A stretch of 64,000 nucleotides of DNA from a bacterium (GTDB lineage: Bacteria > UBA8248 > JACPRG01 > G963555815), in the NCBI GenBank assembly GCA_963555815.3, contig CAUVWX020000001.1:988633-1052632 (forward strand), read 5' to 3'. This document shows, in pieces, positions 5,374 to 56,301 of this stretch. The translations under genes were made by a program, and so were the position numbers. The notes beneath the pieces are model-generated. The model saw nothing but the letters and a program-made list of their open reading frames with translations, was not told the origin of the DNA and made no database searches. Numbering within the stretch: the first letter of the stretch is position 1; the number at the start of each line of letters is the position of its first letter.

Positions 5374-6021
5374 ATGGCCTGGATTAAAACCATTGGGGAG
5401 TCTGAGGCCACTGGCGAGCTCAAGGCGCATTATGACAGGGCGCGCAAGACGCGGGGGTTTGTGCCGAACATTCAGAAGATCAACAGCCTCAAGCCTGAGC
5501 TCTTGAGTCGATACTACCACTTCTCCCGCGCGGTGACCTTCGGAGGCAGCAGCCTGGGGCGAAAGCGGGAGGAGATGATAGCGGTCACCGTCTCAGCGCT
5601 CATCAAATGCAGGTATTGAACGGTCTCTCACGCGGAGGTCCTCCGCAAAGTCATCTGGAACGACGCCAGGCTGGCGGCCAAGGCCAGCGGCGCAAAGGAG
5701 GGAATGAGTCAAAGCGACGCCAATAAGCTGGTCCTGGCGCTCAAGGAGGATTATCGGAATGCGGGCCTGGCCCCTCCGGACGTCGCCATGCTGGAGTACG
5801 CAGAGAAGATCACCTTCCATCCCACCGACATTACAGAAACGGACATAAAAAACCTGCGGACCCACGGATTCAACGATCAGCAGATCCTGGAGATCGCGGC
5901 GGTTGCGTCCCTCTTCAATTATCTGACTCGGATGGCCAACGCCCTGGGGGTGGAGCCGGACAAGGATGATTTCACCGATGACCCGCAGATCCTGGCCAAA
6001 TTGTCTGAGGGGCTGAAATAG
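5374..6021 (+). CDS. AhpD/carboxymuconolactone decarboxylase-family peroxidase-related protein with in-frame TGA (5617-5619) in a CxxU motif; candidate selenoprotein
   Basis: Track ORFs 5374-5619 and 5704-6021 share a frame with no stop in between. The junction SALIKCRY-TGA-TVSHAEV fits the AhpD-like signature CxxCxxxH, with the second Cys replaced. The N-terminus MAWIKTI..EATGELKAHYD resembles the peroxidase-related CMD subfamily. GGGAG lies 8 nt upstream of the ATG. Confidence 0.8.
5632..5646 (+). promoter_or_regulatory. Candidate bacterial SECIS hairpin
   Basis: GCGGAG-GTC-CTCCGC (or a 5-bp stem with loop GGTCC). The stem starts 13 nt after TGA 5617-5619. Confidence 0.55.
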
Positions 6022-6130: not shown

Positions 6131-7924
6131 TTACATCGCGCACTCGCCTTCGCCGCGCTCGAGCTTGTAAGGTTCGTCCTTCCCCCAGTCCTTGTAAAGG
6201 TCCAGGGCGTCCCCTTCCGGGGGCTCCAGCACCTTGGTGATGTCTTTGAGCACTGCTTCGAACCCCTTCGGTCCTACGCGGTCGACAAAATCGTTGAAGG
6301 TCTCGCCCGAATTCCGGTTCTCCTGATAGTAGATGAGTATCTTCCGGAGGGCTTCGGGCGTGCGCTTGGCCGGCACACGAGAGCGAATTCGCTTGCCGAT
6401 CCGCGTGGCTCCATCTGCATAGGAGCCTCCCAGGAAGACCTCGTATGCGGGCACCTGATTACCGTTGCCGGCGCCCTTAACGGCCGCCCCGTGGAAGCCG
6501 ATGTTGGCCAGATGGTGCTGGCCGCAGCTGTTGGGGCATCCGCTCATCTTGACGTGGAGGTCTTGGATGAACGGGTCCTTGATGATCTCGTCCTCTAGGA
6601 GCGATTTTCGCAGCGCATGGGCGAGTCCCATGGAGGAGGTAATCCCCAACTTGCAGCTGTCGGTGCCGGGGCAGGAGGTGACGTCGGTGATGGTATGGAC
6701 CTCGGTCTCCGCCAGGCCGATGTCCTCCAACTCCCTCCAGAGGGGGTAGAGTGTCTCCTCGCGCACCCACCGGAAGATGAGGTTTTGTTGATGGGTGGTG
6801 CGGGCTCGGCCCCCAGCATACTCCCTGGCGATCCGGGCCAGGGAGAAGAACTGTTCCGTCCGAATGTCCCCAAGGGGGACCTTCACGAAGACGGCGTGAT
6901 AGCCCTTCTGCCTTTGGGGTAGGACGTTGGTGTCCCGCCAGTGGTGAAAGGCCCGGTTGTTCCCGTTGGGCTGTTCGATATGGGCGGGGACGCCGGGGGC
7001 GCTGGCGGACTCGTCCTCCAGAAAGAGATAGGGCTCCGGGTCGATGGGCTCCTGGGCCCAGGGTTGCTGCAGTTCCTCGTCTGTCATTTCCCGGAAGGCG
7101 TCGATTCCGATGCGGTCGATGAGGAACTTGATCCGGGCCTTCATCTTGTTCTTTCGGAGCTCGTCCGAGCGGTGGAAGATGCGGATCACCGCCTCGCTGA
7201 CCTTCAGGTAGTCGGAGATCGGCACGAAGTCGTAGAGCGTATAGGCAACCCTCGGGAGGATGGAGAGACCGCCCCCGGTGACGATCCGGAAACCCCTGGA
7301 CTGCTGACCGTTTTCACTTCGAGTCTGCGCCAGAAATCCCAGATCGTGGATCCCGGTGATGGCACAGTCGGTCGGGCAGCCAGAGAAGGCCACCTTGAAC
7401 TTTCTCGGCAGGGTCTGCGTAAAGGGGTGCCGGAGGAAGTAGCGGGCGAAGGCCCCGACGTATGGCGTCACGTCGAAGATCTCGCCTTGGCAGACCCCGG
7501 CCATGGGGCAGCTCGTGACGTTGCGGACAGTGTTCCCGCAGGCCTCCCGGGTGCTGAGCCCCGCCTCCCCGATAACGCGCATGACTTCGGGCGTGTTTTC
7601 AAGCGGGATGAAGTGGAGCTGGATATTCTCCCGGGTAGTGATGTGCCCCTTCCCAAGGGGGACATAGTCCCTGACGACACGTCCCAGGGCCTCCAGCTGC
7701 TCCGCCGTCAAACCCCCAAAGGGGATCTTGATCCGGAACATCTGGGCATCGGCCTGCCTTTGGCCGTAGACCCCTTGGCAGAGTCGAAAGGCGGTGAACT
7801 TCCCCGGGTCCCACTCCCCCTGACGAAAACGCGTGGCCTCGGTCTCGAAGTCGTCGATCTCTTCGGGGAGGACCGGGAGAACGCCTTTCTGCCCCTCGAA
7901 GTTTTTGACGTGCTTGAATTCCAT
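6131..7924 (-). CDS. sir: Assimilatory sulfite reductase (ferredoxin-type, siroheme/4Fe-4S NirA/Sir family)
   Basis: The track ORF 6131-8116 was trimmed to the ATG at 7924 (MEFKHVKNFEG) to avoid overlap with cysH. It shows nitrite/sulfite reductase repeats and Cys-cluster motifs (TSCPGTDSCKLG, SGCPNSCGQHH) and lies immediately downstream of cysH. Confidence 0.88.
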   Translation of the reverse strand: MEFKHVKNFEGQKGVLPVLPEEIDDFETEATRFRQGEWDPGKFTAFRLCQGVYGQRQADAQMFRIKIPFGGLTAEQLEALGRVVRDYVPLGKGHITTRENIQLHFIPLENTPEVMRVIGEAGLSTREACGNTVRNVTSCPMAGVCQGEIFDVTPYVGAFARYFLRHPFTQTLPRKFKVAFSGCPTDCAITGIHDLGFLAQTRSENGQQSRGFRIVTGGGLSILPRVAYTLYDFVPISDYLKVSEAVIRIFHRSDELRKNKMKARIKFLIDRIGIDAFREMTDEELQQPWAQEPIDPEPYLFLEDESASAPGVPAHIEQPNGNNRAFHHWRDTNVLPQRQKGYHAVFVKVPLGDIRTEQFFSLARIAREYAGGRARTTHQQNLIFRWVREETLYPLWRELEDIGLAETEVHTITDVTSCPGTDSCKLGITSSMGLAHALRKSLLEDEIIKDPFIQDLHVKMSGCPNSCGQHHLANIGFHGAAVKGAGNGNQVPAYEVFLGGSYADGATRIGKRIRSRVPAKRTPEALRKILIYYQENRNSGETFNDFVDRVGPKGFEAVLKDITKVLEPPEGDALDLYKDWGKDEPYKLERGEGECAM

Positions 7925-7958
7925 CCTCAAGTCTTCCTTTGGGAAACGGCTATCCAGC

Positions 7959-8663
7959 TCATCTGTGAAGTCCACATTCGGTCTTCGCAAACCCGCGCCA
8001 GCGGCCCGCACGAGCGTCCTCTCCGAGCTTGACAGGCGAGGTGCAGTGGGTGCATCCGATACTGGGATAGTTCTGGTCGTGGAGGGAGTTGTAGGGGACG
8101 TCGTGGGCCTGGACATAGTCCCACACGTCCGCTGAGCTCCATCGGGCCAGCGGGTTCACCTTGACGAGCTCGAACCTTTGGTCCCACTCCACGATCCCGA
8201 TATTGGCCCGACTTGGGGCCTGGTCGCGACGGATCCCGGTAATCCAGGCTTCGAGGCCGGAGAGGGCCTGCCGAAGGGGCAGGACCTTTCTCAAGTGGCA
8301 GCAGCGGTCCGGGTCGTGCCTATAAAGCTCGGGTCCATGTTCGATGGCTTGAGCCTCGGGCGAGAGCGAGGAGCGATAGGTCACTGGCCGGACGCCGTAT
8401 TTCTCCACGATCCGGTCCCGGAGCTCGTAGGTCTCAGGGAACAGAAATTCGGTGTCCAGGTAAAACACCCTGAGGTCAGGCTCGATCTGAACGGCCATAT
8501 CCACTAGAGCCATCCCCTCGGCCCCAAAACCGGTGGCCAGGGCGATCTGGGGGTGAAACTCCCCTAGGGCCCAAGCCAGTACGGCCTGAGGACCCTTTTC
8601 TTCGAACTCACGCCCTAACTCTGCGACCAACTCCGGCGATAGCTTTTTACTGGTGTGATTCAT
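7959..8663 (-). CDS. cysH: APS/PAPS reductase (Fe-S type CysH; CC..CxxC plus C-terminal ECGLH)
   Basis: 234-aa ORF with the PP-loop family fold, DPDRCCHLRKV, SIGCTHCT and a C-terminal KTECGLHR motif. Confidence 0.9.
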   Translation of the reverse strand: MNHTSKKLSPELVAELGREFEEKGPQAVLAWALGEFHPQIALATGFGAEGMALVDMAVQIEPDLRVFYLDTEFLFPETYELRDRIVEKYGVRPVTYRSSLSPEAQAIEHGPELYRHDPDRCCHLRKVLPLRQALSGLEAWITGIRRDQAPSRANIGIVEWDQRFELVKVNPLARWSSADVWDYVQAHDVPYNSLHDQNYPSIGCTHCTSPVKLGEDARAGRWRGFAKTECGLHR

Positions 8664-8790
8664 GGATGGCCTCGCAAAGCTGGGTGATACCGTAAATGGC
8701 GATTGAGTTTTGAAGGTCTCGTCTCATCCGGATTTTTCAAACACTCCGCGAAAGACTCCCCCCGCACATAAAGATGCGGGGAGAAGTATG

Positions 8791-8901
8791 TTAACTAGTT
8801 GTTTTTAAAGGAAAAAACGAACGGGGTGGTCCTTTTCAGGACCCGCTACAGATATAGCCTAGATGTCCGTGAAGAGAAGAATCGTGGGGGGAGCCCCCGT
8901 A
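8791..8901 (-). promoter_or_regulatory. Conserved 111-nt 5'-leader element, copy A (candidate cis-regulatory RNA upstream of cysH)
   Basis: 100 of 111 nt are identical to 9880-9990 in the same orientation relative to the downstream gene. The RNA sense contains GGACA..GGGUCCUGAAAAGGACC, where two GGAC segments compete for one GUCC, followed by a U6 tract. Confidence 0.5.
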
Positions 8902-8970
8902 ACTGAGAGGCAAATTCTTCGAATATGCTGAGTAGATAACCATCATTCCCTTCCTCAGTCTGAATAACCT

Positions 8971-8999
8971 ACCTTAACTTCGAGGCAGAACCCTGTCAA
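8971..8999 (-). promoter_or_regulatory. Promoter of the cysH-sir leader (TTGACA-17-TAAGGT)
   Basis: On the minus strand, TTGACA is at 8999-8994 and TAAGGT at 8976-8971. The 19-nt block GAACCCTGTCAAGCAAAAA is identical in copy B. Confidence 0.5.
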
Positions 9000-9061
9000 G
9001 CAAAAAAATCAAACAATTCGCCTCAAAAGGGCCGAAAATTCTTTAGGGCATCCCTCGTCAC

Positions 9062-9826
9062 TTAGAGGGCCATTCTTAGGCCTGAGAGCAAGAGGACTCC
9101 AGCCAAGATTGCCCGAAGAGCCCTGATGGGGACCCTTGAAGCCAGGCGAGCGCCCAAAAGGACGCCCGGGATCGATCCCACGAGGATCTGGGCCGCGAGG
9201 GTGACGTCCACGGTCCCCAGGGAGAAATGGCCCATCCCAGCCAGTCCGAGAAGCAGGACCGCGTGGGCGATGTCTGTCCCCACGACCTCCCTGACGGTGA
9301 GCGAGGAGCTGACCAGAAGGAGGGCCACGATGATTGTCCCCGAGCCCACCGAAGTCACTGTGACCAGGAATCCCACGGCAGCGCCCGTCACAATCAAGGC
9401 GCGATTCGAGAGGAGAAGATCCTTCTTGCGCCGGATAAAGTCCGGGGCCTTCCTGCCAAGAAAGATTAAGAAGGCGATCAGGATGAGCGTAAAGCCCAAG
9501 GCGTGGCGGACGATCTCATCCAATCGGGCCCCGTTACTCCCTTTGAGGACGGCGAGAAAGAGGATCCCGACCGCCGCTCCCGGCAGGCTCCCCATCGCCA
9601 GTCGCTTCACCATGTTGAAATTGATGTTCGCCTGGCGATAGTGTTGGAACGCCCCAAAGACCTTCGTTACAAATCCGTACAAGAGGTCTGTCCCCACGGC
9701 CACGACGGGGCGCACGCCCATCAGGATCAAAAGGGGCGTCATCAGGGCGCCGCCCCCCATTCCCGTGAGCCCCACTAATATCCCAACACCGAAGCCCGCG
9801 AGGGCGATATAAAGGTCAAACTCCAT
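9062..9826 (-). CDS. TauE/SafE family sulfite/organosulfonate exporter-like membrane protein
   Basis: The track ORF 9062-9859 was trimmed to the ATG at 9826 (MEFDLYIALAGFGVGILVGLTGMGGGALMTP), which is preceded by GGAG. It is a polytopic membrane protein with the Gly-rich TauE-type motif. Confidence 0.82.
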   Translation of the reverse strand: MEFDLYIALAGFGVGILVGLTGMGGGALMTPLLILMGVRPVVAVGTDLLYGFVTKVFGAFQHYRQANINFNMVKRLAMGSLPGAAVGILFLAVLKGSNGARLDEIVRHALGFTLILIAFLIFLGRKAPDFIRRKKDLLLSNRALIVTGAAVGFLVTVTSVGSGTIIVALLLVSSSLTVREVVGTDIAHAVLLLGLAGMGHFSLGTVDVTLAAQILVGSIPGVLLGARLASRVPIRALRAILAGVLLLSGLRMAL

Positions 9827-9879
9827 CCAAACACTCCACGAAGAATTCTCGCCGCACAAAAAAGTGGCGAAAAATTCAG

Positions 9880-10146: not shown

Positions 10147-11130
10147 CTAAGGCGAAGACATGCGCCAGAGGTGGACCGTGCCGTTCTCTGAGGCTGAGGC
10201 GATGAAGTGGCCATCAGGCGAAAAGGCAATCGAGTGGACCCAGCCCCCATGCCCCTCAAAGAGCTTCACTTCCAGCCCGGTGGACCTATCCCAAACGCGG
10301 ACCGTCTCGTCCACTGACCCAGAGGCCAGTCGTTTGCCATCGGGTGAGAAGGCCACGGAGGAGATAAGATTTTCATGCCCGTGAAAGATTCCCGCATCCT
10401 TCGTAAGGAGTCCCACTTCCTCTGTGTTGATCATGTGTATAACGGTGACCTGATCGGACGAAGAGGCCAGGAGTTTGCCGTCGGACGAAAACGAGACGGA
10501 AAAGATTCGCCATCCATGGTTCGTCATTTTCATCATTTGCAGCTTTGATGAGACGTCCCAGATGCGGACGCTGTTGTCAAATGACCCAGAGGCCAGGAGT
10601 TTGCCATCGGGTGAAAAGACAACAGAACGGACCTGGCGAGTATGTCCCTCGAGACGTGCTATTTCCTTCCCTGTGGACACATCCCAGAGGCGGATAGTGT
10701 TGTCAGCTGACCCAGAGGCCAGAAGACGGCCATCAGGTGAGAAAGCGACGGAGTTGACCGACTTTCCGTGCCCCAGCAGTCTCTTTATTTCTTGCCCTGA
10801 GGACACATCCCAGAGGCGGATAGTGTTGTCCCATGACCCTGTGGCCAGGACGCGGCCGTCGGGCGAGAAGGAGACGGCACCGACCATCATCTGATGGCCA
10901 TCAAGTTCTCTTAGCTCCTTCCCTGAGGAGACCTCCCAGAGGCGAACGGTTGTGTCACTAGACCCTGAGGCGACGAGGCGACTGTCAGGCGAAAAGGTGA
11001 CTGCGTGGACTGAGCCCTCGTGCCCATTGAGGACCTGGGCATCTTCATCTCCAGCGAAGGCGAGAGACGCCGCGAGCAGGACAGGAAAAATGAAAATCAA
11101 GGCCTGAAGGGGCCACCGACGCGTGGGCAT
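10147..11130 (-). CDS. Exported WD40-repeat beta-propeller protein
   Basis: 327 aa with seven units of the type GH...V.SVAFSPDG..LASGS.D.T.RLWD. The N-terminus MPTRRWPLQALIFIFPVLLAASLAFA looks like a signal peptide. GAGGAG lies upstream of the ATG. Confidence 0.88.
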   Translation of the reverse strand: MPTRRWPLQALIFIFPVLLAASLAFAGDEDAQVLNGHEGSVHAVTFSPDSRLVASGSSDTTVRLWEVSSGKELRELDGHQMMVGAVSFSPDGRVLATGSWDNTIRLWDVSSGQEIKRLLGHGKSVNSVAFSPDGRLLASGSADNTIRLWDVSTGKEIARLEGHTRQVRSVVFSPDGKLLASGSFDNSVRIWDVSSKLQMMKMTNHGWRIFSVSFSSDGKLLASSSDQVTVIHMINTEEVGLLTKDAGIFHGHENLISSVAFSPDGKRLASGSVDETVRVWDRSTGLEVKLFEGHGGWVHSIAFSPDGHFIASASENGTVHLWRMSSP

Positions 11131-11273: not shown

Positions 11274-12125
11274 CTACGGGGAAACCGTCCACAGGCGAAT
11301 GGAGCTGTCACCCGTTCCTCTAGCGAAGTGACGGCCATCTGGCGAGGAGGCGGACGAGTCGATCCAATCTACGCCCCCCTCGGGTCTCTCCGCCGGTTCC
11401 CCCGTTGCGACCTCCCAGAGATGGATGATGATGATATGACTCCCCTCCCCCGAGGCGAGGAGACGGCCGTCGGGCGAGAAGGTGACGGCGTTGACCCCGT
11501 GTCTATGCCCCCCCATGCTTCTTAATTCTCTCCCTGTGGACACATCCCAGAGGCGGGCGGTCTTGTCCTCTGACCCAGAGGCCAGGAGACGGCCATCGGG
11601 AGAAAAAGAGACGGAGAAGACGGCCTTCCTGTGCCCGCTCAGAAGTCCAATGTGTCTCCCGGTTGGGACCTCCCAGAGGCGTATCGTCTTGTCCCTTGAC
11701 CCCGAGGCAAGGAGGCGACCGTCAGGAGAGAAGGAGAGGGAGTAGATCCAGTCTCCATGGCCCTCGAGGTTCCCCAACCCTTTCCCTGAGGACACGTCCC
11801 AGAGACGAACGGAGCTGTCCTTTGACCCTGAGGCGAGGAGGCGACCGTTGGGCGAAAACCGAGTGGAGTAAACCCAGTCGCTATGCCCCTCCAGGCTTCT
11901 CAATTCTTTCCCTGAGGACACATCCCAGAGACGAACGGAACCATCCGTTGACCCTGAGGCGAGAAGGCGACCGTCGGGAGAGAAGGAGAGGGAGAGGACC
12001 GGGCCCTCATGCCCTTTCAGGATCCGGACCTCCTCCTCCGACTCCGCGGGAAAGGCAGAGGGTCTCGCCAGAAGGATGAGAACGAGGATAATCAAAATTC
12101 GAAGAGGCCACCGACGTGCGCGCAT
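11274..12125 (-). CDS. Exported WD40-repeat beta-propeller protein (paralog)
   Basis: The track ORF 11274-12179 was trimmed to the ATG at 12125 (MRARRWPLRILIILVLILLARPSAFPA), which is preceded by GGAGGAGGG. The WD40 units resemble those of 10147-11130. Confidence 0.85.
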   Translation of the reverse strand: MRARRWPLRILIILVLILLARPSAFPAESEEEVRILKGHEGPVLSLSFSPDGRLLASGSTDGSVRLWDVSSGKELRSLEGHSDWVYSTRFSPNGRLLASGSKDSSVRLWDVSSGKGLGNLEGHGDWIYSLSFSPDGRLLASGSRDKTIRLWEVPTGRHIGLLSGHRKAVFSVSFSPDGRLLASGSEDKTARLWDVSTGRELRSMGGHRHGVNAVTFSPDGRLLASGEGSHIIIIHLWEVATGEPAERPEGGVDWIDSSASSPDGRHFARGTGDSSIRLWTVSP

Positions 12126-12286
12126 CTCACCCTCCTCCGTTTTCATTAGGCTTGGGGAGTTCCCTCGTGATATGGCCACTGGACAAATCGTAACATAAAT
12201 CGTAGCACATCATGGCGGTCCCGGCGACCCGGCGGGCGTCCACGACTATCTTGAACCAGCGCATCACCCCGAGTATCCTTGATCCC

Positions 12287-14551: not shown

Positions 14552-16520
<1,969 letters not shown>

Positions 16521-16623
16521 ACCGGAGATAAAGATAGCATAAACCCAAAAAAGTGACAAGAGGCGAGGTGTCAAAACAACAAAAGCAAGAGGTTTGCCCC
16601 TTCGATTCGGCGGTGGACACACT

Positions 16624-21644: not shown

Positions 21645-22715
21645 TTAGCTCTTTTTACACTTTCCTCGGACCCGCTCTACGCCGGCCACCATGTTTCGAA
21701 GCTTCTCGCGCGCCAGCCAGCGGGGGACAAAGCGGAAACCGCAGTCAGGGCTCACCCAGAGGCGGTCCGGGGCAATAAATTCCAGGGCCCGCCGGACCCG
21801 CTCGGCCACGTCTTCGGGCCTCTCCACATAGTAGGATTTGACGTCGATGAGGCCCGCCACAATCTCCTTGTCGGGAGGAAACTCTCTGAGAAGCTCCAGC
21901 TCAGCGAGCTCCCGATTGCCAAATTCGATGGCGAGGGCATCGGCCCGAAGGTCAAAAAGGGCTGGCAAGAGAGGGCGATAGGTCCGCTTGCTGCGGTGTA
22001 GTGAGTAATAGCTCCCGAAACAGAAGTGGACCGTGATGTGGGCCTTCACGCCCTCGATGGCCTCATTGAGGAGGGACACGGCCTGGGCGGGTTCGATCCG
22101 GAGCGAGGGAGAGCTCGGGTATCTGTGGGGCTCTTCTGAGGTGACGCGCGTCAGGGCGGGCTCGTCCACCTGGAGCCACTCCGCCCCGTCCTCGACAAGC
22201 CCTTTGAGCTCGCGGTTGATGACGGCGGCGACTTCTCTCGCAATTTTAATCACTTCCGCCGTGCTCTCTCCCCCCACAGGCGGAAGCCTGGGCAGGAGGG
22301 TAAGGGGTCCCGGACAGCCCACCTTGAGGGGTTTTAAGGCGAGCGGCCTGGCCCGGCGGAACTCTTCTCGGATGCCAAGGCCCTGGGGGGCGTCGATCCG
22401 GCCCTCCAGATAGTAGACGGGCATGGTGTCGTAGCCGGGTGGGCCTGCCTTTCGAAAGGGGGGTTCTTTTCGGATAGCGCCCAGGCGCTCGTAGAAGGAG
22501 AGGGTAAAACCCTCCCGGCGCATCTCGCCATCGGTGATGAGGTCTACCCCGGCCTCTTCCTGGTCCTGGATGGCCATCCGAACGGCGTCGTCGAGGGTTT
22601 CACCGAAATCCCCCGCTCCGAAGGCGCCAGCGCGGACCTGCTCTTTGGCGGCCCAGAGCCAGGGCGGACGCCCATAGCTCCCGATGACGGTGGTGCGAAG
22701 GAGACGATTCATCAA
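21645..22715 (-). CDS. Cobalamin-independent methionine synthase catalytic-domain protein (short MetE-like)
   Basis: 356 aa. TTVIGSYGRP, ITDGEMRR and a C-terminal SPDCGF match the Meth_synt_2 family. Confidence 0.8.
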   Translation of the reverse strand: MMNRLLRTTVIGSYGRPPWLWAAKEQVRAGAFGAGDFGETLDDAVRMAIQDQEEAGVDLITDGEMRREGFTLSFYERLGAIRKEPPFRKAGPPGYDTMPVYYLEGRIDAPQGLGIREEFRRARPLALKPLKVGCPGPLTLLPRLPPVGGESTAEVIKIAREVAAVINRELKGLVEDGAEWLQVDEPALTRVTSEEPHRYPSSPSLRIEPAQAVSLLNEAIEGVKAHITVHFCFGSYYSLHRSKRTYRPLLPALFDLRADALAIEFGNRELAELELLREFPPDKEIVAGLIDVKSYYVERPEDVAERVRRALEFIAPDRLWVSPDCGFRFVPRWLAREKLRNMVAGVERVRGKCKKS

Positions 22716-30870: not shown

Positions 30871-30976
30871 TCGAATATGCGTTCTCCGAAGCCACTGAGA
30901 GTCTGGATTGACCAGCTCCCTTGGCCGATAGGGTTAGGCGGGTGACTGTCTGGCCTCCCGTGTTTGGAAAGGAGAG
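30871..30976 (+). promoter_or_regulatory. Molybdenum cofactor (Moco) riboswitch
   Basis: The 3' part GGCCUCCCGUGUUUGGAAAGGAGAGC closely matches the E. coli moaA leader CGCCUCCCGUAUCUGGAAAGGUGUAC as I recall it. The 5' UUCUCCGAAGCC can pair (CUCC/GGAG) with the SD-containing 3' end. It lies directly upstream of moaA. Confidence 0.75.
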
Positions 30977-30983
30977 CGTTGAC

Positions 30984-32123
30984 TTGGAATACGTGGGTCA
31001 GCGTTCAGTTTTTTCTAAGCGCTGGCCCTTTTATTTTGGAGTGAGGAGTGAAGAGATGCCGCGTGACTTAGTAGATGAGCGAATGAACGCCAGCCTGGCC
31101 GAGTTGCCCGTGCTGCCAGCCATAGCGGAGAAGGGCCGGATGTCGGACGGGTTCGGACGGCATATCACCTACATCCGGGTGTCCGTCACGGACCGTTGCA
31201 ACATCCGGTGTGTCTACTGTATGCCCGAGGAGGGGATGCCGTGGATCCCCAAGGAAAATTTCCTCACCTTCGAGGAATTGGCCACCATCCTCGGGGTGAT
31301 GGGGGAAATGGGGCTGGAGAAGGTCCGCGTCACCGGAGGCGAGCCTTTATTGCGAAGGGGCCTTCCCGAATTTATCAAGATGGTCCGCAACGTCCCCTCC
31401 GTGAAGCAGATTGCCCTCTCGACGAATGCCATCCTTTTTGAGGAACAAGGTCCTGCCCTCGTGGAGGCTGGCCTGAACCAGATCAACATTAGTCTCGACA
31501 CCTTCCAAGAGGAGAAATTCGTTCGGATCTCGCGAAGGGACTATCACAACAAGGTGATGCGAGGGATCGCTAAGGCCGAGGAGCTCGGGATCAATCCCCT
31601 GAAGATCAACTGCACCGTGCTCAAGGGGTACAACGACGACGAGATCCTCGACTTCGCCCACGTCACCCGCGAGCGCCCCTGGCATGTCCGGTTCATCGAG
31701 TTCATGCCCTTGGAGGGGAGCAGGGACCTGCAAAAGGACACCTATATATCCAACCAGGACATCCTCGACCGCCTCATGGAGGATGGAGAGCTCCAGCCGG
31801 TCGACCCGTTCGACAACGGGGGCCCGGCGGTCTATTACCAGTACCCGGGGGCGCCGGGGACCGTTGGCTTCATCGACCCCCTCAGCCACAATTTCTGCGC
31901 CCGGTGCAATCGGATGCGTCTGACAGCTCAGGGGGACCTTCGCCCCTGCCTTTTCTCGGACATTGAAGTCCCCTTGGGAGAGGTGCTGAGAGAGGGTGCC
32001 TCGCAGCAAGAGCTGAAGGACCTCATCCATCAGGCCCTTGGGGTGAAGCCCGAGAGACACTATCTTGTTGAAAAAGGGGCTGATGCGAGTCAGCTGATCG
32101 CCCTCTCCCAGGTGGGTGGCTGA
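30984..32123 (+). CDS. moaA: GTP 3',8-cyclase MoaA (radical SAM)
   Basis: It carries the radical-SAM motif VTDRCNIRCVYCMPEEG and C-terminal MoaA Cys motifs (CARCNRMRLT). The TTG at 30984 is 9 nt after AAGGAG. The alternative ATG at 31140 (MSDGFGRHITYIRVS) would give the usual length of about 327 aa. Confidence 0.88.
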   Translation: MEYVGQRSVFSKRWPFYFGVRSEEMPRDLVDERMNASLAELPVLPAIAEKGRMSDGFGRHITYIRVSVTDRCNIRCVYCMPEEGMPWIPKENFLTFEELATILGVMGEMGLEKVRVTGGEPLLRRGLPEFIKMVRNVPSVKQIALSTNAILFEEQGPALVEAGLNQINISLDTFQEEKFVRISRRDYHNKVMRGIAKAEELGINPLKINCTVLKGYNDDEILDFAHVTRERPWHVRFIEFMPLEGSRDLQKDTYISNQDILDRLMEDGELQPVDPFDNGGPAVYYQYPGAPGTVGFIDPLSHNFCARCNRMRLTAQGDLRPCLFSDIEVPLGEVLREGASQQELKDLIHQALGVKPERHYLVEKGADASQLIALSQVGG

Positions 32124-37823: not shown

Positions 37824-38035
37824 TGAGTGTAGAGTGGAATGATTCCTACGAGATCGGCTATCAACTCTTCGAAAAGTTTCCGGACGTGGATCCCCTGACC
37901 GTCCGTTTCACGGACCTGCACCAGTGGGTCACGGAACTGGCCGAGTTTGAGGATGACCCGAAGGCCTCAAACGAGAAGCTTCTTGAGGCCATCCAGATGG
38001 CGTGGCTTGAAGAGTACCAGGACGCCAAGGAGTAG
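37823..38035 (+). CDS. iscX: IscX (YfhJ) Fe-S assembly accessory protein
   Basis: 70-aa acidic protein (W.DSYEIGYQL.EKFPDVDPL.VRFTDLH.WV). It overlaps the fdx stop (TGATG). Confidence 0.85.
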   Translation: MSVEWNDSYEIGYQLFEKFPDVDPLTVRFTDLHQWVTELAEFEDDPKASNEKLLEAIQMAWLEEYQDAKE

Positions 38036-38086
38036 GTCCCTTGCTTTCCGGCATTCTCCGAAAAGTTCCATAGGTCCTAAGGTCCT

Positions 38087-39190
38087 ATGTTTCTCGTCCT
38101 CACCACTCTCATTCTCGCCCTGAATCTCTTTGCCCAGCCCATTGCGGCCCAGGAGACTGAGCGCCCCTTTGAGGTGGTCGCTGAGCTGCCTGAAGGCCCC
38201 GGAAATATCGCGGTCACGCCCCAGGGCAGAATCATCATCAGCATGCACCAGTTCTTCAGTCCCGAGCACCGAGTCATGGAGGTGCTGCCCAGTGGGGAGC
38301 TCCGGCCGTTCCCAAACGAAGAATGGAGCAGTGCCCCCGACAAGAGGGGCGTCGGTTTCAACGCCGTGCTCGGCATTCGGAGCGACGCCCGCGGGGTTGT
38401 TTGGATGCTCGACAATGGAACCGCTGGCGGCGCCACCCCAAAGATCGTCGGGTGGGACACGGTGCGGAACGCGCTCAAGACCGTGATTCACCTCCCCCAT
38501 CCGGTGACGCGCGCCGGCTCTTTCCACAACGACCTGGTGGTCGATCTTCTTCACGAGGCTGTCTACATTTCGGATCTGGGCGGGGAGGGAGGTCCTGCAA
38601 TTGTTGTGGTCGACCTCAAGACGGGTTTTTCGCGGCGCGTTCTTGCCGGTCATCAGAGCGTGGTCGCCGAGGACGTGCCGATGGTGGTCGAGGACAGATT
38701 GGTGACCATTCTCGAAGGTGGTGGAGAATCCTCGGAGGCTCGGATAGGGATCAACCCCATCACCATTGACCCCGCAAACAAATGGGTCTACTACGGCGCA
38801 ATGCATGGGACGAGCGTCTACCGCGTCCGAACCACCGACCTCTTGAACACGGAGCTCGACGATGACCAGCTCGGAGAGCGGGTGGAGCGTTATGGCACAA
38901 AGCCTGTCAGCGACGGGATCAGCGTGGATTCCACCGGGAACGTTTACATCACAGACGTCACGGGCAACGCCATCGGGGTCACTTCCTCCGACGGCCAATA
39001 CCGACGGCTCATTAGCGATGGTCTCATCCTGTGGCCAGATGGAATGAGCTACGGCCCCGACGGATATTTCTATGTCACGGTCAACCAACTGCACCGTTCG
39101 GCCATTCTCAACGAAGGACAAGACATCACGATGCCCCCCTTTCTCATCATTCGTTTCAAGCCCCTCACGCCGAGCGCGATCGGCCGATAG
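38087..39190 (+). CDS. Secreted major royal jelly/yellow-family beta-propeller protein
   Basis: 367 aa with signal peptide MFLVLTTLILALNLFAQPIAAQE. The MRJP-like motifs (SFHNDLVVD...AVYISD, IVVVDLKTG.SRRVL) are recalled from the family. Confidence 0.7.
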   Translation: MFLVLTTLILALNLFAQPIAAQETERPFEVVAELPEGPGNIAVTPQGRIIISMHQFFSPEHRVMEVLPSGELRPFPNEEWSSAPDKRGVGFNAVLGIRSDARGVVWMLDNGTAGGATPKIVGWDTVRNALKTVIHLPHPVTRAGSFHNDLVVDLLHEAVYISDLGGEGGPAIVVVDLKTGFSRRVLAGHQSVVAEDVPMVVEDRLVTILEGGGESSEARIGINPITIDPANKWVYYGAMHGTSVYRVRTTDLLNTELDDDQLGERVERYGTKPVSDGISVDSTGNVYITDVTGNAIGVTSSDGQYRRLISDGLILWPDGMSYGPDGYFYVTVNQLHRSAILNEGQDITMPPFLIIRFKPLTPSAIGR

Positions 39191-39284
39191 GTGCTTACCC
39201 CGCTTAAAGGAAGGTCCGGCGCAGGGGGAAATCAAAAATTTCGCTACAGGTGGGTTGTTCTGAAAAGTCCTGGGGCTCCCCGGC

Positions 39285-39596
39285 CTATGCAGCGCTCGGT
39301 TTTCCAAAACGCCCTAAAAGGCGTCTTAGCCGGGAAAAAATCACTTCGGAGGCCACTGCGCGGCCAAGATCCACTGAGCGGACACCGCCCCCTTTATGGC
39401 GGACTGTCGCCTGCTCCGTCTCAAGGTCCACCTCGGCCTCTTCTACCCCCGGGAGCCCCTCCAGGGCTCGCTTGACTCGAAGGGCTCAGAGGTTGCAGAC
39501 CATCCCCCGGACGCGAAAGGATAACTCGCCCGAGGGCCCCTCCACGGGGGCGTCCGCCGAAGGGTTGACAAGGAAGTTTCGAAATTTCAAAGGCAT
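39285..39596 (-). CDS. Heavy-metal-associated (HMA/CopZ/MerP-like) domain protein with in-frame TGA (39488-39486) in GMxCxxU; candidate selenoprotein, not in the ORF track
   Basis: Manual minus-strand translation gives MPLKFRNFLVNPSADAPVEGPSGELSFRVRGMVCNL-TGA-ALRVKRALEGLPGVEEAEVDLETEQATVRH...; 103 codons, TAG at 39287-39285. This fits the HMA consensus f.V.GM.C..C...v..aL..l.GV....V.l....a.V. Confidence 0.72.
39453..39469 (-). promoter_or_regulatory. Candidate bacterial SECIS hairpin
   Basis: In RNA sense it reads GAGCCC-UGGAG-GGGCUC. The stem starts 16 nt after the UGA and the loop contains GG. Confidence 0.5.
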
Positions 39597-39635
39597 GGCA
39601 ATCTATCGTCGATAAGCGTTGATAAACGGGGAGAT

Positions 39636-40043
39636 TTAGATCTTCTTTCGGATGGTCCGGTCTATCGAGAGCCTTCCGCTTCCCAGGAGGAGGAGCGCCA
39701 ACGCCCCCCCCAAGAGGAGAATCTCCCGATCGGCACTTCCGCCAATCAGCCCTCCCGGCAGCTTGACCAGCCAGATAGCCATGATCAGGATGATCACCTG
39801 AAGGAGGCTTATCCATCGGGTCCACAGGCCCAGGACGACCAGAATTCCCCCGAAGAATTCAATGACCCCGACGAGGACAGCTGTGACAGTGGGAAGCGGA
39901 ATTCCGAGGCTCCCGAAGGATTGTCCCACGATCTCAACGTCGAGAAAAAGTTGATAGAAGCCTGTCCAGATGAAGACAGCCCCCACGGCGAGCCGAAGGG
40001 GAAGTGGGGCCAGGAGATGGGCATCCTTGAAAGGAGAAGGCAT
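39636..40043 (-). CDS. DoxX family membrane protein
   Basis: 135 aa with four TM helices and a DoxX-like sequence (LRLAVGAVFIWTGFYQLF..., VIEFFGGILVVLGLWTRW). GGGAGG lies upstream of the ATG. Confidence 0.82.
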   Translation of the reverse strand: MPSPFKDAHLLAPLPLRLAVGAVFIWTGFYQLFLDVEIVGQSFGSLGIPLPTVTAVLVGVIEFFGGILVVLGLWTRWISLLQVIILIMAIWLVKLPGGLIGGSADREILLLGGALALLLLGSGRLSIDRTIRKKI

Positions 40044-41443: not shown

Positions 41444-41520
<77 letters not shown>

Positions 41521-41535
41521 ATTGATGGATATTGT

Positions 41536-41613
41536 GGTGGGCGTAGCTCAGCAGGTGAGAGCACTGGGCTGTGGACCCAGGGGTCGAGGGTTCGAATCCC
41601 TTCGCTCACCCCA
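41536..41613 (+). tRNA. tRNA-His (anticodon GTG)
   Basis: Extra G-1 before acceptor GTGGGCG/CGCTCAC, anticodon loop CTGTGGA and an encoded CCA. Confidence 0.9.
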
Positions 41614-41631
41614 AGTTGGTCTTTGTTTCGC

Positions 41632-41709
41632 GCGCCTGTAGCTCAGCCTGGAAAGAGCGTCGGACTTCGAATCCGCAGGTCGTAGGTTCGAATCCTACCG
41701 GGCGTGCCA
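41632..41709 (+). tRNA. tRNA-Arg (anticodon TCG)
   Basis: Acceptor GCGCCTG/CGGGCGT, anticodon loop CTTCGAA, T-loop TTCGAAT and an encoded CCA. Confidence 0.88.
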
Positions 41710-41722
41710 GAAACGGGTGGGT

Positions 41723-41798
41723 GGGCCGCTAGCTCAACTGGTAGAGCAACGGACTCTTAATCCGTGGGTTGAAGGTTCGAGTCCTTCGCGGCTCACCA
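41723..41798 (+). tRNA. tRNA-Lys (anticodon CTT)
   Basis: Acceptor GGGCCGC/GCGGCTC, anticodon loop CTCTTAA, T-loop TTCGAGT and an encoded CCA. Confidence 0.9.
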
Positions 41799-41842
41799 TT
41801 TTCTGGGCTTCACCGAGGCTCCTCAAAGGGCCCGGACAGAAT

Positions 41843-41926
41843 GCGAGGGTGGCGGAATGGCAGACGCGCTAGATTTAGGATCTAGTGCCTTCGGGCGTGG
41901 GGGTTCGAATCCCCCCTCTCGCACCA
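41843..41926 (+). tRNA. tRNA-Leu (anticodon TAG), long variable arm
   Basis: Acceptor GCGAGGG/CTCTCGC, anticodon stem-loop CTAGA-TTTAGGA-TCTAG, variable arm GTGCCTTCGGGCG and an encoded CCA. Confidence 0.88.
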
Positions 41927-52260: not shown

Positions 52261-53412
52261 TCAAAACCCGGCCCTGGCCATCAGGGCATCTATCAGGCGG
52301 TAGAACTTCCACCCCTCTTGAAGTCGTCCGATGAGGCCGGGCTGCCCATCGGATTGCCCCTCCCGTGGGTCCACGTGCTGAAAAGTCCGAAGGAGCGTCA
52401 GGCTCACATTGGGCCTTCCGCTAAGTGCGTCAAGGAGCCTCAAACTCTCCGTATGGGGGATGATGGGGTCTGGAATGCTATGGGCCAGAAAGATGTCGGC
52501 GTGGACCTCCTCTAGGGGTTTTGCCAGTGAGAGGTCCTCCACAAGATTTTTGACCCTGGGGGAGATTTCGGAATAGAGGGCCTGAAACCGCTCGGGCTCC
52601 TGATTGGCCAGGACAGCGTAGAGGGCCTGAGCAGGAGGGCTCAAGGTGTTTAGTTCAGCCTCCACCCGGCTCTCCTCGTCCCTTATCTTGCGCTGCATGA
52701 TCTCCTTGAAGCGGGGCCGCTCCAGGGGATCCTCCAGAAAGTCGAGGTTGTGCAACATGAGGAACCATTTGGCCCAGGGCGCGGGGTTTCCGTAACCCTC
52801 CTCTTCCCCATAGCCGTACCACCGCGTTGTGTAGTAGCGGATCACGTTGGCGAGGTCGAAGTAACCGCCGAAGGAGACCACATAGTCCACTTCTTCGCGG
52901 GCCTCCTCCTCGGCCGCGGCCACGAGGGCGACCCCCCCTCCAAAGCTGATGCCCAACACCCCCAGGTCTCTTCCCCTGGCCTCTGGGACCTCTTGGGCCA
53001 GATAGCGGATGGCGGCGACGGCGGCTCGGACCGAATCCCTTCGAACGCGAGACTCCTTGAGGCCGGGGAAATCCGGGACGAGGGTTGCGAAGCCCGCCTG
53101 TCCAAGAGTGAAGGCGAACTTGACGAGCCTCGGGTCATCCTTTCCCGCCTCGGCGAGGCCGTGGATGATGAGGAGCCCGGGCCGCGGGCCCTCCCCCGGA
53201 CGAATGTAGAGATCCGCCTGAAGGGATTTCTGTCCATCGGAGAAGACGACGGCCTTTCGGTCGGCCTGTGGGTAAACCCGGCTGAGGTAGAGGGCTCCTC
53301 CCTCTCCTGTTAGGATGTCTAGGGCGGTTAGAAAGCTGATGAAGGGCCGATTGGAGCAACCCGTGATGAGAAGGAGGAAGATGAACCAGAGGAGCCGGCC
53401 TGGGCGTACCAT
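52261..53412 (-). CDS. Alpha/beta hydrolase-fold lipoprotein (dienelactone hydrolase-like)
   Basis: 383 aa with lipobox LLITGCS and the nucleophile elbow GISFGGG. Confidence 0.7.
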   Translation of the reverse strand: MVRPGRLLWFIFLLLITGCSNRPFISFLTALDILTGEGGALYLSRVYPQADRKAVVFSDGQKSLQADLYIRPGEGPRPGLLIIHGLAEAGKDDPRLVKFAFTLGQAGFATLVPDFPGLKESRVRRDSVRAAVAAIRYLAQEVPEARGRDLGVLGISFGGGVALVAAAEEEAREEVDYVVSFGGYFDLANVIRYYTTRWYGYGEEEGYGNPAPWAKWFLMLHNLDFLEDPLERPRFKEIMQRKIRDEESRVEAELNTLSPPAQALYAVLANQEPERFQALYSEISPRVKNLVEDLSLAKPLEEVHADIFLAHSIPDPIIPHTESLRLLDALSGRPNVSLTLLRTFQHVDPREGQSDGQPGLIGRLQEGWKFYRLIDALMARAGF

Positions 53413-53418
53413 CGAAGG

Positions 53419-56301
53419 TCATCCCGCTCGCGGGACAGGGGATTTCAGCTTTGGCTGAGGGGTCTGAGCCAGATAAGCCTGCAAGTAGTGCCCCGTGTAG
53501 GAACCGGCATGGGCGGCGATCTTCTCAGGAGGGCCCTCGGCCACAATGGTCCCGCCGAGGTCTCCTCCCTCAGGGCCGAGGTCGACCACGTGGTCGGCCG
53601 TGCGAATGACGTCGAGGTTGTGCTCGATGACGACGACGGTGTTCCCGAGATCCACCAAACGATGCAGGACGTGAAGGAGTTTTTCCACGTCGTAGAAGTG
53701 GAGACCCGTGGTGGGCTCATCCAGGAGATAGAGAATGTCCCGGGGCTCCCGCTTGGCGAGTTCTGTGGCGATCTTCAGGCGCTGGGCCTCCCCGCCCGAG
53801 AGAGTCGTGGCAGGCTGGCCCAGGCGCAGATAGCCGAGACCCACGTCGGCCAGCACCTTGAGCTTGGCCACGACTGGCCCTTGGTCTTCGAAGACGCGGA
53901 GGGCCTCATCCACCGTCAGGCAGAGAACGTCGTGGATGGACTTCCCACGGAACTTGACCTCCAGCGTTTTTGAACGAAAGCGGGTCCCCTCGCATTCAGG
54001 ACAGCGGATGTAGACGTCCGCCATGAAGTGCATCTCAATCTTCTCGTGGCCTTCCCCCTTGCAGCGATCGCACCGGCCCCCAGGGACGTTGAAGGAGAAG
54101 TAGCCCGGTCCGTAGCCTTGCAGCTTTGCCATGGACGTTGCGGCGAAACGTTGGCGGATGGCGTCGTAGGCCTTGATGTACGTCACGGGGTTCGAGCGAG
54201 GTGTTCGGCCAATGGGGTTCTGGTCCAGAAGGACCACATCCCGGAGTCGCTCAAAGCCTTGGATCTCCTTGAAGACGCCGATTTGTCCGGAGCCGCCATG
54301 AAAGATCCGATTGAGGGCGTTATACAAGGTGTCGTGGATGAGGGTGCTCTTTCCGGATCCGGAAACCCCTGTAATGCAGGTGAAGCCCCCGAGGGGGATG
54401 TGGAGGTCGATGCCCTTGAGATTGTTCTCTCTAGCCCCAAAGAGAGAGAGGATTTTTTCGTCGGACCTGCGCTGGGGGGCTTTCGCCCGGGCCCCCTTGG
54501 AGTGGCTCACCTTCTTTCGACGTCTCGCTCCGTCAGTGGGCAGGACCCTTCGCCGAATATGGGGTGCGATGACCCGATCCCCGCGTAGGTAGGCGGCGGT
54601 CAGGGAGTCTTTACAGTCTTTGATTCCCTTGGCAGGGCCGGCGTAGACCACATGGCCTCCCTGCTCCCCCGCCCCTGGGCCCAGATCCACAAGGCAGTCC
54701 GCGTGGGTGATCACGTCTCGATCGTGCTCGACGACGAGGAGGGTGTTTCCCGCCTGCGTCAGGCTCTTCAGGATCTCCAGGAGCTTGGCGTTGTCGCGGG
54801 GGTGGAGTCCAACCGTAGGTTCGTCCAGGATGTAGAGGGTGCCCGTGAGCTGTGCCCCCAGCTGGTTGGCGAGATTGATGCGCTGCGCCTCTCCCCCGGA
54901 GAGGGTTCGGGTGAGACGGTCGAGCGTGAGGTAGTCCACCCCGACATGGGTCAAGAAGCTGAGCCGGGAGGCGATCTGTTTCAGGATGTCCCGGGCAATC
55001 TCCTTCTCGCCGACGGTGAGGGAGAGGGAGGAGAAGAAATCCTGGACCTCCTGGACGGATTTTTGGCAGAGGTCGGTGATGTGGAGGCCTCCCACGCGAA
55101 CATGGAGGGCTTCCTTCCGAAGTCGGCTCCCGCCGCAGCGCTGACACGTCACGGCGCTCATGTAGTGGCGGAGGAAGACCCGAACCCAGAGCTTGTACTT
55201 CTTTCGGGTGAGACGCTCGAAGAAGGGCAAGACCCCTCGGAAATCCTTCGTCCCCTCCAGGACGAGTCGCTGGTGGCGCTTGGAGAGTTTCCCAAAGGGG
55301 GCGAAGAGGTCGACCCCCTCCTTGCGGGCGAGCTTCCTCAGTTGAGCCGTAAAGTAGTGTCGGTAGCGGGACCTCGTCCAGGGCTCGATGGCGCCTTCGG
55401 CGAGGCTTTTGGCCCGGTCGGGAATAATGAGGTCCACGTCGAAGTCAAGCTTGTTGCCGAATCCGCCGCAGTTCTGGCAGGCGCCCCGGGGATTGTTGAA
55501 GGAAAAGAAGAGGGGGGTTGGCTCCTCAAACTCCCGGTCGCAGCGGGGGCAGATAAAGCACCGGGAGAAGGGCAGGGTGGGGCCATCCACAAATCGGACC
55601 CAGGCCTTTCCTCCCCCCTCCGAAAAGGCGACCTCCAGGGAGTCGGCCAGGCGGCTTTTGACCTCCTCGTCAAGCTGGAGGCGGTCCACCACGACGAAGA
55701 TTTTCGACTCCTGCGTGGTCTCGGGGATCTGTCCATTGCTTAAGGTGAGAAGATCTTCCCCCAGCCATACTCGCAAGAAACCCTGGGCCAAGAGGTTGCG
55801 GAGTGTTTGCCCCACCTGCTCCGGCTTCTCCACCGGGAGGGAGAAGAGGATGAAGCAGCGGTCCCCAGAAAAATCACAGATGAGGCGGTCCACCACCTGC
55901 TGGACCGTATCGGGCGTCACCGCCTCCCCGCAGTCGGGGCAGAAGGTCGTCCCAACCTTGGCGTAGAGGAGGCGAAGATAGTCGTAGATCTCCGTTGCGG
56001 TCCCGACGGTGGAGCGGGCGTGCTTGACTGGGTTTCGTTGCTCGATGGCGATGGCAGGGGAAATCCCCTCGATCAAATCCACGTCGGGCTTATCCACCCG
56101 CTCTAGAAACTGGCGGGCATATGTGGAGAGAGACTCCACATAGCGCCGGTGCCCCTCGGCGTAGACAGTGTCGAAGGCGAGAGAGGACTTTCCCGAACCG
56201 CTCAGGCCCGTCAGGACGATGAAATGCCCTCGGGGAAGATCCAGGTCGATCCCCTTCAGGTTGTGCTCCCGGGCGCCTCGGATGATGATGGCATCGCCCA
56301 C
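53419..56301 (-). CDS. uvrA: Excinuclease ABC subunit A
   Basis: 960 aa with two ABC modules (GLSGSGKSSL, GVSGSGKSTL), zinc-finger Cys pairs and LSGGEAQR x2. Confidence 0.95.
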   Translation of the reverse strand: MGDAIIIRGAREHNLKGIDLDLPRGHFIVLTGLSGSGKSSLAFDTVYAEGHRRYVESLSTYARQFLERVDKPDVDLIEGISPAIAIEQRNPVKHARSTVGTATEIYDYLRLLYAKVGTTFCPDCGEAVTPDTVQQVVDRLICDFSGDRCFILFSLPVEKPEQVGQTLRNLLAQGFLRVWLGEDLLTLSNGQIPETTQESKIFVVVDRLQLDEEVKSRLADSLEVAFSEGGGKAWVRFVDGPTLPFSRCFICPRCDREFEEPTPLFFSFNNPRGACQNCGGFGNKLDFDVDLIIPDRAKSLAEGAIEPWTRSRYRHYFTAQLRKLARKEGVDLFAPFGKLSKRHQRLVLEGTKDFRGVLPFFERLTRKKYKLWVRVFLRHYMSAVTCQRCGGSRLRKEALHVRVGGLHITDLCQKSVQEVQDFFSSLSLTVGEKEIARDILKQIASRLSFLTHVGVDYLTLDRLTRTLSGGEAQRINLANQLGAQLTGTLYILDEPTVGLHPRDNAKLLEILKSLTQAGNTLLVVEHDRDVITHADCLVDLGPGAGEQGGHVVYAGPAKGIKDCKDSLTAAYLRGDRVIAPHIRRRVLPTDGARRRKKVSHSKGARAKAPQRRSDEKILSLFGARENNLKGIDLHIPLGGFTCITGVSGSGKSTLIHDTLYNALNRIFHGGSGQIGVFKEIQGFERLRDVVLLDQNPIGRTPRSNPVTYIKAYDAIRQRFAATSMAKLQGYGPGYFSFNVPGGRCDRCKGEGHEKIEMHFMADVYIRCPECEGTRFRSKTLEVKFRGKSIHDVLCLTVDEALRVFEDQGPVVAKLKVLADVGLGYLRLGQPATTLSGGEAQRLKIATELAKREPRDILYLLDEPTTGLHFYDVEKLLHVLHRLVDLGNTVVVIEHNLDVIRTADHVVDLGPEGGDLGGTIVAEGPPEKIAAHAGSYTGHYLQAYLAQTPQPKLKSPVPRAG

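Follow-up and report, generated by a model that had tools for sequence, protein, structure and literature searches.

The stretch of bacterial DNA described here (the "window", 64,000 nt of contig CAUVWX020000001.1, assembly GCA_963555815.3, positions 988,633 to 1,052,632) carries on its minus strand a small gene which very probably is a genuine selenocysteine (Sec)-encoding gene for a protein of the heavy-metal-associated (HMA) type. Its open reading frame (ORF) is interrupted by a single TGA which falls on the codon for the second ligand of the metal-binding motif, and the predicted product thus has the site C-x-x-U. Together with its homologs in distant bacterial lineages it forms a conserved selenoprotein family, which resembles the known HMA-type selenoproteins and lies outside every curated family.

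An unlisted gene with a predicted HMA fold

The minus-strand translation of 39596..39285 is MPLKFRNFLVNPSADAPVEGPSGELSFRVRGMVCNL-U-ALRVKRALEGLPGVEEAEVDLETEQATVRHKGGGVRSVDLGRAVASEVIFSRLRRLLGRFGKPSAA, with one internal TGA (39488-39486) and a terminal TAG (39287-39285), and the local context of the site reads ...GMVCNL-U-ALRVKRALEGLPGV.... The ORF list of the window holds only two pieces of this frame (36 and 48 aa) together with two overlapping ORFs, and no gene is called at this site in the source assembly. An earlier reading of the window, made without database searches (the sequence-only reading), had proposed that an unlisted HMA gene runs here from the ATG to the TAG, that its TGA sits upon the second Cys of the HMA CxxC, and that the overlapping ORFs are mere shadows; all three proposals held. 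With the Sec replaced by Cys, as that reading had recommended, the product matches Pfam HMA (PF00403) with 48.8 bits, well above the gathering score of 24.8, residues 27-68 lying on profile positions 2-43 of 62. GMVCNLU fits the GMxCxxC motif at the β1-α1 junction with the UGA as its second Cys, and a sequence search of the PDB likewise aligned the TGA to the second Cys of CxxC in the ATP7B, CopA, CopZ, MerP and NmerA domains. A codon-usage score trained on the long genes of the window is positive for the HMA frame (+0.14) and negative for the overlapping ORFs 39250-39615(+) (-0.22) and 39421-39825(-) (-0.30), neither of which gave a Pfam match. The N-terminus of the HMA protein (MPLKFRNFLVNPSADAPVEG) is not hydrophobic; lacking a signal peptide, the protein is predicted to be cytoplasmic, as is CopZ and unlike MerP.

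Outside the HMA match the family has two segments of its own, an N-terminal [KR]-x-R-N-[LF]-x-V-x-P and a C-terminal basic helix, RR[AL][IL]xR. The residues which are invariant across lineages are R6, N7, V10 and P12 in the N-terminal part; G31-M32-x-C34-x-x-U37, followed by A38 and R40 to L48, at the site; and V85, R91, R92, R96 and P100 in the C-terminal part. That the lineages share R6, N7, V10 and P12 near the N-terminus and the RR motif near the C-terminus supports both the ATG start and the full length of the product.

For structure prediction a Cys ortholog and a marine member of the family were modelled in place of the window protein. The AlphaFold2 model of the Cys ortholog (mean predicted local distance difference test score, pLDDT, 78.8) shows β-α-β-β-α followed by a long helix where β4 would be expected. 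Its best PDB matches are to MerP (1osd) and to CopA, ATP7B and CopZ domains, at root-mean-square deviations of 1.1-1.7 Å, and the Foldseek matches to MerP/CopZ cover 58-68 alignment columns (most of them 62-65). In the model of the full-length marine member, built upon a 14-sequence alignment (pLDDT 77.9), β1 is preceded by a further strand and, at the N-terminus, by a short helix, and helices again occupy the place of β4 in the βαββαβ pattern of HMA domains. The N-terminal strand may stand in for β4.

The UGA codon, its conservation and its hairpin

The TGA is kept in four more independent assemblies of the window's population (ERZ28763718, ERZ25074053, ERZ25068966 and Logan ERR14231558), which show 1-3 base differences from the window across the 312-nt gene. 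A word-indexed search with the single protein returned one homolog, and the family emerged only when DNA collections were scanned with the fragment that follows the UGA. Among genomes chosen one per GTDB species, two metagenome-assembled genomes (MAGs) of NC10/Methylomirabilota have a TGA at the same codon, and a scan of metagenomes added 13 contigs from soil, groundwater and sediment. The NC10-type members read GM[IV]C[SA][LR]-TGA-A[LH]RVKRALEGL[PH]G, the remainder of the protein having ca. 40% amino-acid identity to the window protein. A Tara-type marine homolog, found on two contigs with a GC content of 41.5%, also has TGA at this codon. The closest different lineage (L001/L002, from JGI marine samples), with 94% nucleotide identity, has TGC (Cys), and remoter full-length Cys forms (P0196, P0199 and P0220) carry the same N- and C-terminal motifs. 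The TGA is thus common to three deeply separated lineages, and for the TGC in the sister lineage a recent Sec-to-Cys replacement is the simplest explanation. The sequence-only reading had suggested a comparison of orthologs for TGC versus TGA; TGA in three distant lineages and five assemblies, with Cys in a sister lineage, is the classical signature of a selenoprotein. An exhaustive search of representatives with the Cys ortholog as query was of no help in finding Cys orthologs, its results being dominated by ATPases with multiple HMA domains.

Substitution patterns were examined over codons 14-60 past the TGA in pairs of TGA-bearing members. The ratio of nonsynonymous to synonymous substitution rates (dN/dS) was 0.29 (L004/L009), 0.45 (L004/L008) and 0.26 (L009/L014), and it is below 1 on either side of the TGA. 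Judged by these values the reading frame past the UGA is under purifying selection, i.e. translation would continue through it. Synonymous divergence in the first 13 codons after the TGA is 0.23-0.29, as against ca. 0.75 further down, in the pairs L004/L009 and L004/L008; in L009/L014 and L009/L008 such a reduction is slight or absent, and the counts are small.

The bSECIS (bacterial Sec insertion sequence) consensus (PMC13188914 Fig. 2) calls for an apical loop of 3-9 nt, a stem of 4-16 bp, a G in the first two loop positions, a distance of 16-37 nt from UGA to loop, and a free energy of -7.5 kcal/mol or lower. The hairpin which the sequence-only reading had noted 16 nt past the UGA is indeed present, as GAGCCCU-GGA-GGGGCUC (39469-39453), with seven base pairs, a GGA loop and -10.7 kcal/mol; the stem starts 16 nt and the loop 23 nt after the UGA. 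By our own implementation of the consensus, used in place of bSECISearch, it agrees with the consensus on all four counts. Drawn with a 5-nt loop it reads U-G-G-A-G, which corresponds to the pattern N1-G-[G/U]-N-N2. As background, the window has 1986 TGA trinucleotides; a hairpin of the consensus type with -7.5 kcal/mol or lower comes after 6% of these, and one with -10 or lower after 2.5%. All eight distinct sequences of the family keep the six inner pairs, and the only changes are one-sided and compatible (A-U/G-U, U-G/U-A). Most telling is the marine gene of 41.5% GC (0.41 at third codon positions), which spells the hairpin with GCC, CTG, GAG and GGG; elsewhere in that gene these codons account for 1 of 8 Ala, 1 of 11 Leu, 1 of 7 Glu and 2 of 4 Gly, respectively. 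The use of minority codons in a low-GC gene argues that the RNA is constrained beyond the needs of the peptide. No Rfam family matches the region, the best hits (E-values 0.8-3.8) being far below the gathering scores.

As regards the genetic code, TGA ends 24 of the 58 long ORFs of the window, hscA and fdx among them, and the GC content of the window is 59.6%. Two more selenoprotein genes (Table 1) came to light, through a truncated Pfam match and a scan for TGAs that lie in frame with good coding signal on either side. The first, which is unannotated, encodes an AhpD-like protein reading …KCRY-U-TVSH…, with the motif C-R-Y-U (CxxU); the ORF list covers only its C-terminal piece (5704-6021). 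Its UGA is followed by a hairpin, GCGGAG-GUC-CUCCGC, with the loop 18 nt downstream and -8.2 kcal/mol, and the TGA was found in three assemblies. The second reads …FQT-U-ERC…, and reading through its TGA widens the coverage of the DUF3179 profile from positions 124-292 (51.5 bits) to 13-292 (123 bits), the called ORF (3729-5129, 466 aa) being without the first 123 profile positions. Here the hairpin, GAGGUGC-GGGUCUG-GCACCUC, begins 2 nt past the UGA, which is nearer than the consensus spacing, and the TGA is likewise present in independent assemblies. Both "AhpD-like protein, CxxU" and "DUF3179, UxxC/T" are among the catalogued selenoprotein families (PMC13188914). That the genome of the window decodes Sec is thus a supported prediction from its sequence, and with three selenoprotein genes in 64 kb the lineage would be dense in Sec. 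Two other candidates from the same scan were rejected: 22026-22337(+) lies inside a gene on the opposite strand, and 52261-56301(-) consists of two adjacent genes which share one frame.

Table 1. Coordinates of the HMA selenoprotein gene, its elements and related features of the window
Feature	Position	Strand	Evidence or remark
HMA-fold selenoprotein CDS (predicted)	39285..39596	minus	103 codons including one Sec, plus TAG stop; start ATG 39596
In-frame UGA, read as Sec (predicted), second ligand of the C-x-x-U motif	39486..39488	minus	Conserved TGA; TGC in sister lineage
First metal-binding Cys (Cys34) of GMVCNLU, TGC codon	39495..39497	minus	Invariant in family alignment
Bacterial SECIS-like hairpin GAGCCCU-GGA-GGGGCUC	39453..39469	minus	Consensus criteria; inner pairs kept; minority codons in 41.5% GC relative
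DoxX-family membrane protein gene, upstream, same strand	39636..40043	minus	Pfam DoxX 64.9 bits
AhpD-like / peroxidase-related selenoprotein gene, unannotated	5374-6021, TGA 5617-5619	plus	TIGR01926 123.6 bits (cut-off 81.8, U→C)
DUF3179 selenoprotein gene, UxxC	3228-5129, TGA 3558-3560	plus	DUF3179 match spans TGA on read-through

Relationship to known systems and alternative readings

Of the 119 families in a 2026 catalogue of prokaryotic selenoproteins (PMC13188914 Table 1), those related to metals are a P-type ATPase with UxxC in its HMA domain, the UxxU "metal-binding protein" NF041115, BFD-like 2Fe-2S proteins named CopZ, and a transport protein of the MerT type. A stand-alone CxxU HMA family is absent from the 119 families of that table, though other published candidate lists may include it. 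The sequence-only reading had called a Cys-Sec metal site in such a fold chemically distinctive; Sec in an HMA site is supported, but it is not unprecedented, given the catalogued UxxC and UxxU forms. Neither the window protein nor an NC10 member passed any NCBIfam cut-off, their best scores being 50.3 of 85 bits (a CopZ model) and 57.7 of 95 (NF041115).

A close parallel is NF041115 (UxxU_metal_bind), which is likewise small, stand-alone and HMA-like and has Sec in its metal-binding motif. No other NCBIfam model scores higher with the NC10-type members (57.7 bits), and with the window protein it ranks second (42.2; cut-off 95). It has Sec at both positions (UxxU), whereas the proteins described here have one (CxxU), and the window family differs further in its conserved N-terminal segment, its C-terminal basic helix and the lack of a modelled β4 after α2. 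The P-type ATPase E1-E2 selenoprotein (TIGR01525, UxxC; PMC13188914 Table 1, PMC2398784 Table 2) similarly has Sec in place of Cys in an HMA CxxC. There, however, Sec replaces the first Cys and the HMA domain forms the N-terminal part of an ATPase in the membrane; in the window protein it replaces the second Cys of a stand-alone protein of ca. 103 aa with no adjacent ATPase gene. The Cu(I) chaperones CopZ/Atx1 and the Hg(II)-binding MerP/NmerA domains (1osd, 1cpz, 6ff2, 2qif, 1kqk) share the predicted fold and the position of the ligands at β1-α1, but are all-Cys proteins. Against the CopZ models the window protein scores below the cut-offs (NF033794, 40.3/95; NF033795, 37.2/91; NF047957, 50.3/85 bits), as it does with MerP (TIGR02052, 29.9/92.55 bits), and it has no signal peptide and no mer genes nearby. 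The residue before the first Cys is V/I in the window family and T/H in CopZ/MerP-type proteins, and unlike these the family has extra conserved terminal segments and is located outside a cop or mer operon. NF045683, the "MerT/CopZ fusion-like heavy metal transport selenoprotein", includes a CopZ-like HMA module and gives a weak match (24.4 bits, profile positions 164-219); the cut-off there is 375 bits, and the model describes a membrane fusion protein of 235 residues, of which the window protein is without the MerT part. The "MerP" selenoprotein of the Global Ocean Sampling survey (PMC2398784 Dataset S1) was considered as a relative and rejected, its sequence (…APAGTUCQSG…) being unrelated.

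What we infer of Sec insertion, the SECIS function of the hairpin, the metal-binding role and the metal may be put as follows. The hairpin 16 nt past the UGA would recruit SelB carrying Sec-tRNA(Sec), Sec would be inserted at codon 37, and translation would run on to the TAG at 39285. The product would be a cytoplasmic protein of ca. 103 residues with the heavy-metal-associated (ferredoxin-like) fold, holding Cys34-x-x-Sec37 at the β1-α1 junction where CopZ, MerP and the ATPase domains have two cysteines. A soft thiophilic metal ion, for which Cu(I) and Hg(II) are the obvious candidates, could then be held between Cys34 and Sec37 in a mixed S/Se site and handed over; relative to Cys, Sec might give tighter binding and faster ligand exchange. 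Granted that the gene is a genuine selenoprotein gene, we favour metal binding or transfer as its role with modest confidence, on the strength of fold and motif. The balance tips only slightly towards a fuller description of the family as an uncatalogued one with a stand-alone HMA fold, an obligatory mixed CxxU metal site, an N-terminal RN-x-x-V-x-P strand and a C-terminal RRAIxR helix replacing β4, distributed over Nitrospinota-like, Methylomirabilota/NC10 and low-GC marine bacteria, truncated by every current annotation pipeline, and with a partner and metal unlike those of the classical Cop and Mer systems. If true, the prokaryotic selenoproteome would gain a new family, a stand-alone HMA protein with a CxxU site. 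The natural Sec, Cys and Gly versions of one small metal-binding fold would also form a tractable comparison set for what selenium gives a metal-trafficking site in affinity, exchange rate and oxidation resistance.

Several observations weigh against a Sec-containing metallochaperone. Neither in the 64 kb of the window, with a Pfam scan of its first ten genes, nor in the adjoining 6 kb past its start did we find selA, selB, selD or a gene for tRNA-Sec. One NC10-type member (P0151; L042 132-602) has GGA (Gly) at the Sec position with frame and hairpin otherwise intact, which could be a loss of the second ligand, a shift in function or, as it comes from one contig, an error. The peptide patterns with which both collections were scanned (RVKRALEG, ALRVKRALE, GLPG…) derive from the helix that directly follows the UGA, and so the 13-residue invariance after U is inflated, as is the Sec:Cys ratio. 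Neither RNAalifold nor pair counting over the eight family sequences found a two-sided compensatory change, and therefore covariation proves nothing for the hairpin. RNAalifold favours a competing 12-bp stem which begins at the UGA; this stem was set aside, having four mismatches in the low-GC member. The Cys-form relative keeps the hairpin unchanged, as is expected after a recent change, and the hairpin by itself is consequently not diagnostic. Lastly, cop, mer, P-type ATPase, metal regulator and metal-resistance genes are absent from all examined neighbourhoods, and the neighbourhood differs between lineages (DoxX; membrane protein and TrkA; AP_endonuc_2). With a context that is neither conserved nor rich in metal genes, the role of metal chaperone is drawn solely from fold and motif, and the context favours no particular metal or partner.

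The same context lends some weight to a different function for a real selenoprotein, in which C-x-x-U is a redox couple (selenenylsulfide/selenol) or a sulfur/selenium carrier, perhaps acting with DoxX in thiol/sulfur metabolism. A redox role is supposed for most CxxU/UxxC selenoproteins (PMC13188914), a DoxX gene lies immediately upstream on the same strand, no metal transporter or regulator is near the gene in any lineage examined, and there is a weak match to the sulfurtransferase TusA (E = 0.019). The TusA match, however, has 15.2 bits and is far under the cut-off of 28.6, the linkage to DoxX is limited to the lineage of the window, and every significant match is to a metal-binding HMA protein. 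We regard such a redox or carrier role as possible but rather unlikely.

The remaining explanations deny that Sec is encoded at all, and some of them draw upon the public annotation of the family. In a profile search of the protein collection homologs turned up as C-terminal pieces, 66-69 residues long, which bear the name [quoted passage not shown], and one entry (P0181) is an N-terminal "hypothetical protein" which ends exactly at the TGA. These entries would suit two short genes, or a C-terminal fragment translated by itself from an internal GTG/ATG, but such fragments would be without β1 and the metal site, and both halves are conserved together with the intervening TGA in every lineage; that an overlapping ORF is the real product fares no better, the codon scores of both being negative and homologs lacking. 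This explanation has next to no probability. For another homolog (P0175; L040 169-552, L041 150-533) the gene caller read both TGAs as Trp under genetic code 4, which results in a "protein" of full length that has W in place of Sec and ends in a spurious tail. This Trp in the marine homolog, and the true Gly codon (GGA) mentioned above, might suggest that UGA is read as Trp, Gly or Cys without a Sec system, through genetic code 4 or 25 or by leaky near-cognate read-through. The use of TGA as the stop of 24/58 long ORFs (including hscA and fdx) and the genome's 60% GC speak against it, as does the alignment of the UGA with Cys in a Cys-type motif; moreover, the two other in-frame TGAs of the window also fall on Cys positions of known selenoprotein families. 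We consider it highly improbable. The TGA might also have come into an ordinary Cys-type copZ-like gene by nonsense mutation, as a polymorphism between strains or as an artefact of sequencing or assembly, which would make the gene a pseudogene. This would accord with the TGC, one base from TGA, of the 94%-identical relative and with the missing gene call in the source assembly. It would leave unexplained the TGA in five independent assemblies and at the same codon in distant lineages of differing GC content, the purifying selection downstream and the constrained hairpin, and it is already effectively refuted; we give it hardly any credence. A Sec-encoding HMA gene accordingly remains our preferred reading, and on this reading the family is mis-annotated in GenBank and JGI as fragments or hypothetical proteins, with the consequence that selenoproteome counts in Methylomirabilota and Nitrospinota-like bacteria are underestimated.

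Neighbouring genes and other features of the window

The DoxX gene lies 39 nt upstream of the HMA gene, an arrangement shared with the close relative L002, and no promoter-like or terminator-like site was found between the two; DoxX is a probable operon partner in the window's lineage only. At the NC10-type loci groEL or a σ54-type regulator is found upstream, and an uncharacterised membrane protein of 220-234 aa and TrkA-type genes downstream, while a Cys-form gene adjoins an AP_endonuc_2 gene. In the window's population iscX and the HMA gene are separated by a gene for a 367-aa protein of the MRJP/yellow family (38087-39190, plus strand). The 94%-identical relative (L001 570-910) lacks this gene, and the gap from iscX to the HMA gene there is ca. 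340 nt. The MRJP/yellow-family gene casts a shadow ORF on the minus strand (37967-39307, 446 aa), the longest ORF of this stretch.

The nearest named relatives of the window's PheT are from Nitrospinota MAGs, at 56% identity, which places the organism in a deep Nitrospinota-like lineage and not in NC10. Five tRNA genes (Arg, His, Arg, Lys, Leu; 41444-41926, plus strand), none of them for tRNA-Sec, precede tig-clpP-clpX, and a tmRNA gene with the tag ADAELALAA (2463-2821, plus strand) is located beside smpB. Several forms of rhodanese are known selenoproteins; a 148-aa rhodanese-domain gene occurs ca. 4 kb beyond the start of the window (L034 2144-2590).

Two riboswitches were recognized. A thiamine pyrophosphate (TPP) riboswitch (16434-16525, minus strand) lies upstream of thiC (14552-16303, minus strand). 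A molybdenum cofactor (Moco)/tungsten riboswitch (30872-30990, plus strand) overlaps the start of the longest ORF of a MoaA-like radical SAM gene (30921-32123), the true start of which is therefore probably further downstream. Lastly, two adjacent genes for WD40 β-propeller proteins, unusual in bacteria (10147-11130 and 11274-12179, both minus strand), adjoin a cluster of sulfite reductase, phosphoadenosine phosphosulfate (PAPS) reductase and TauE genes (6131-9859).

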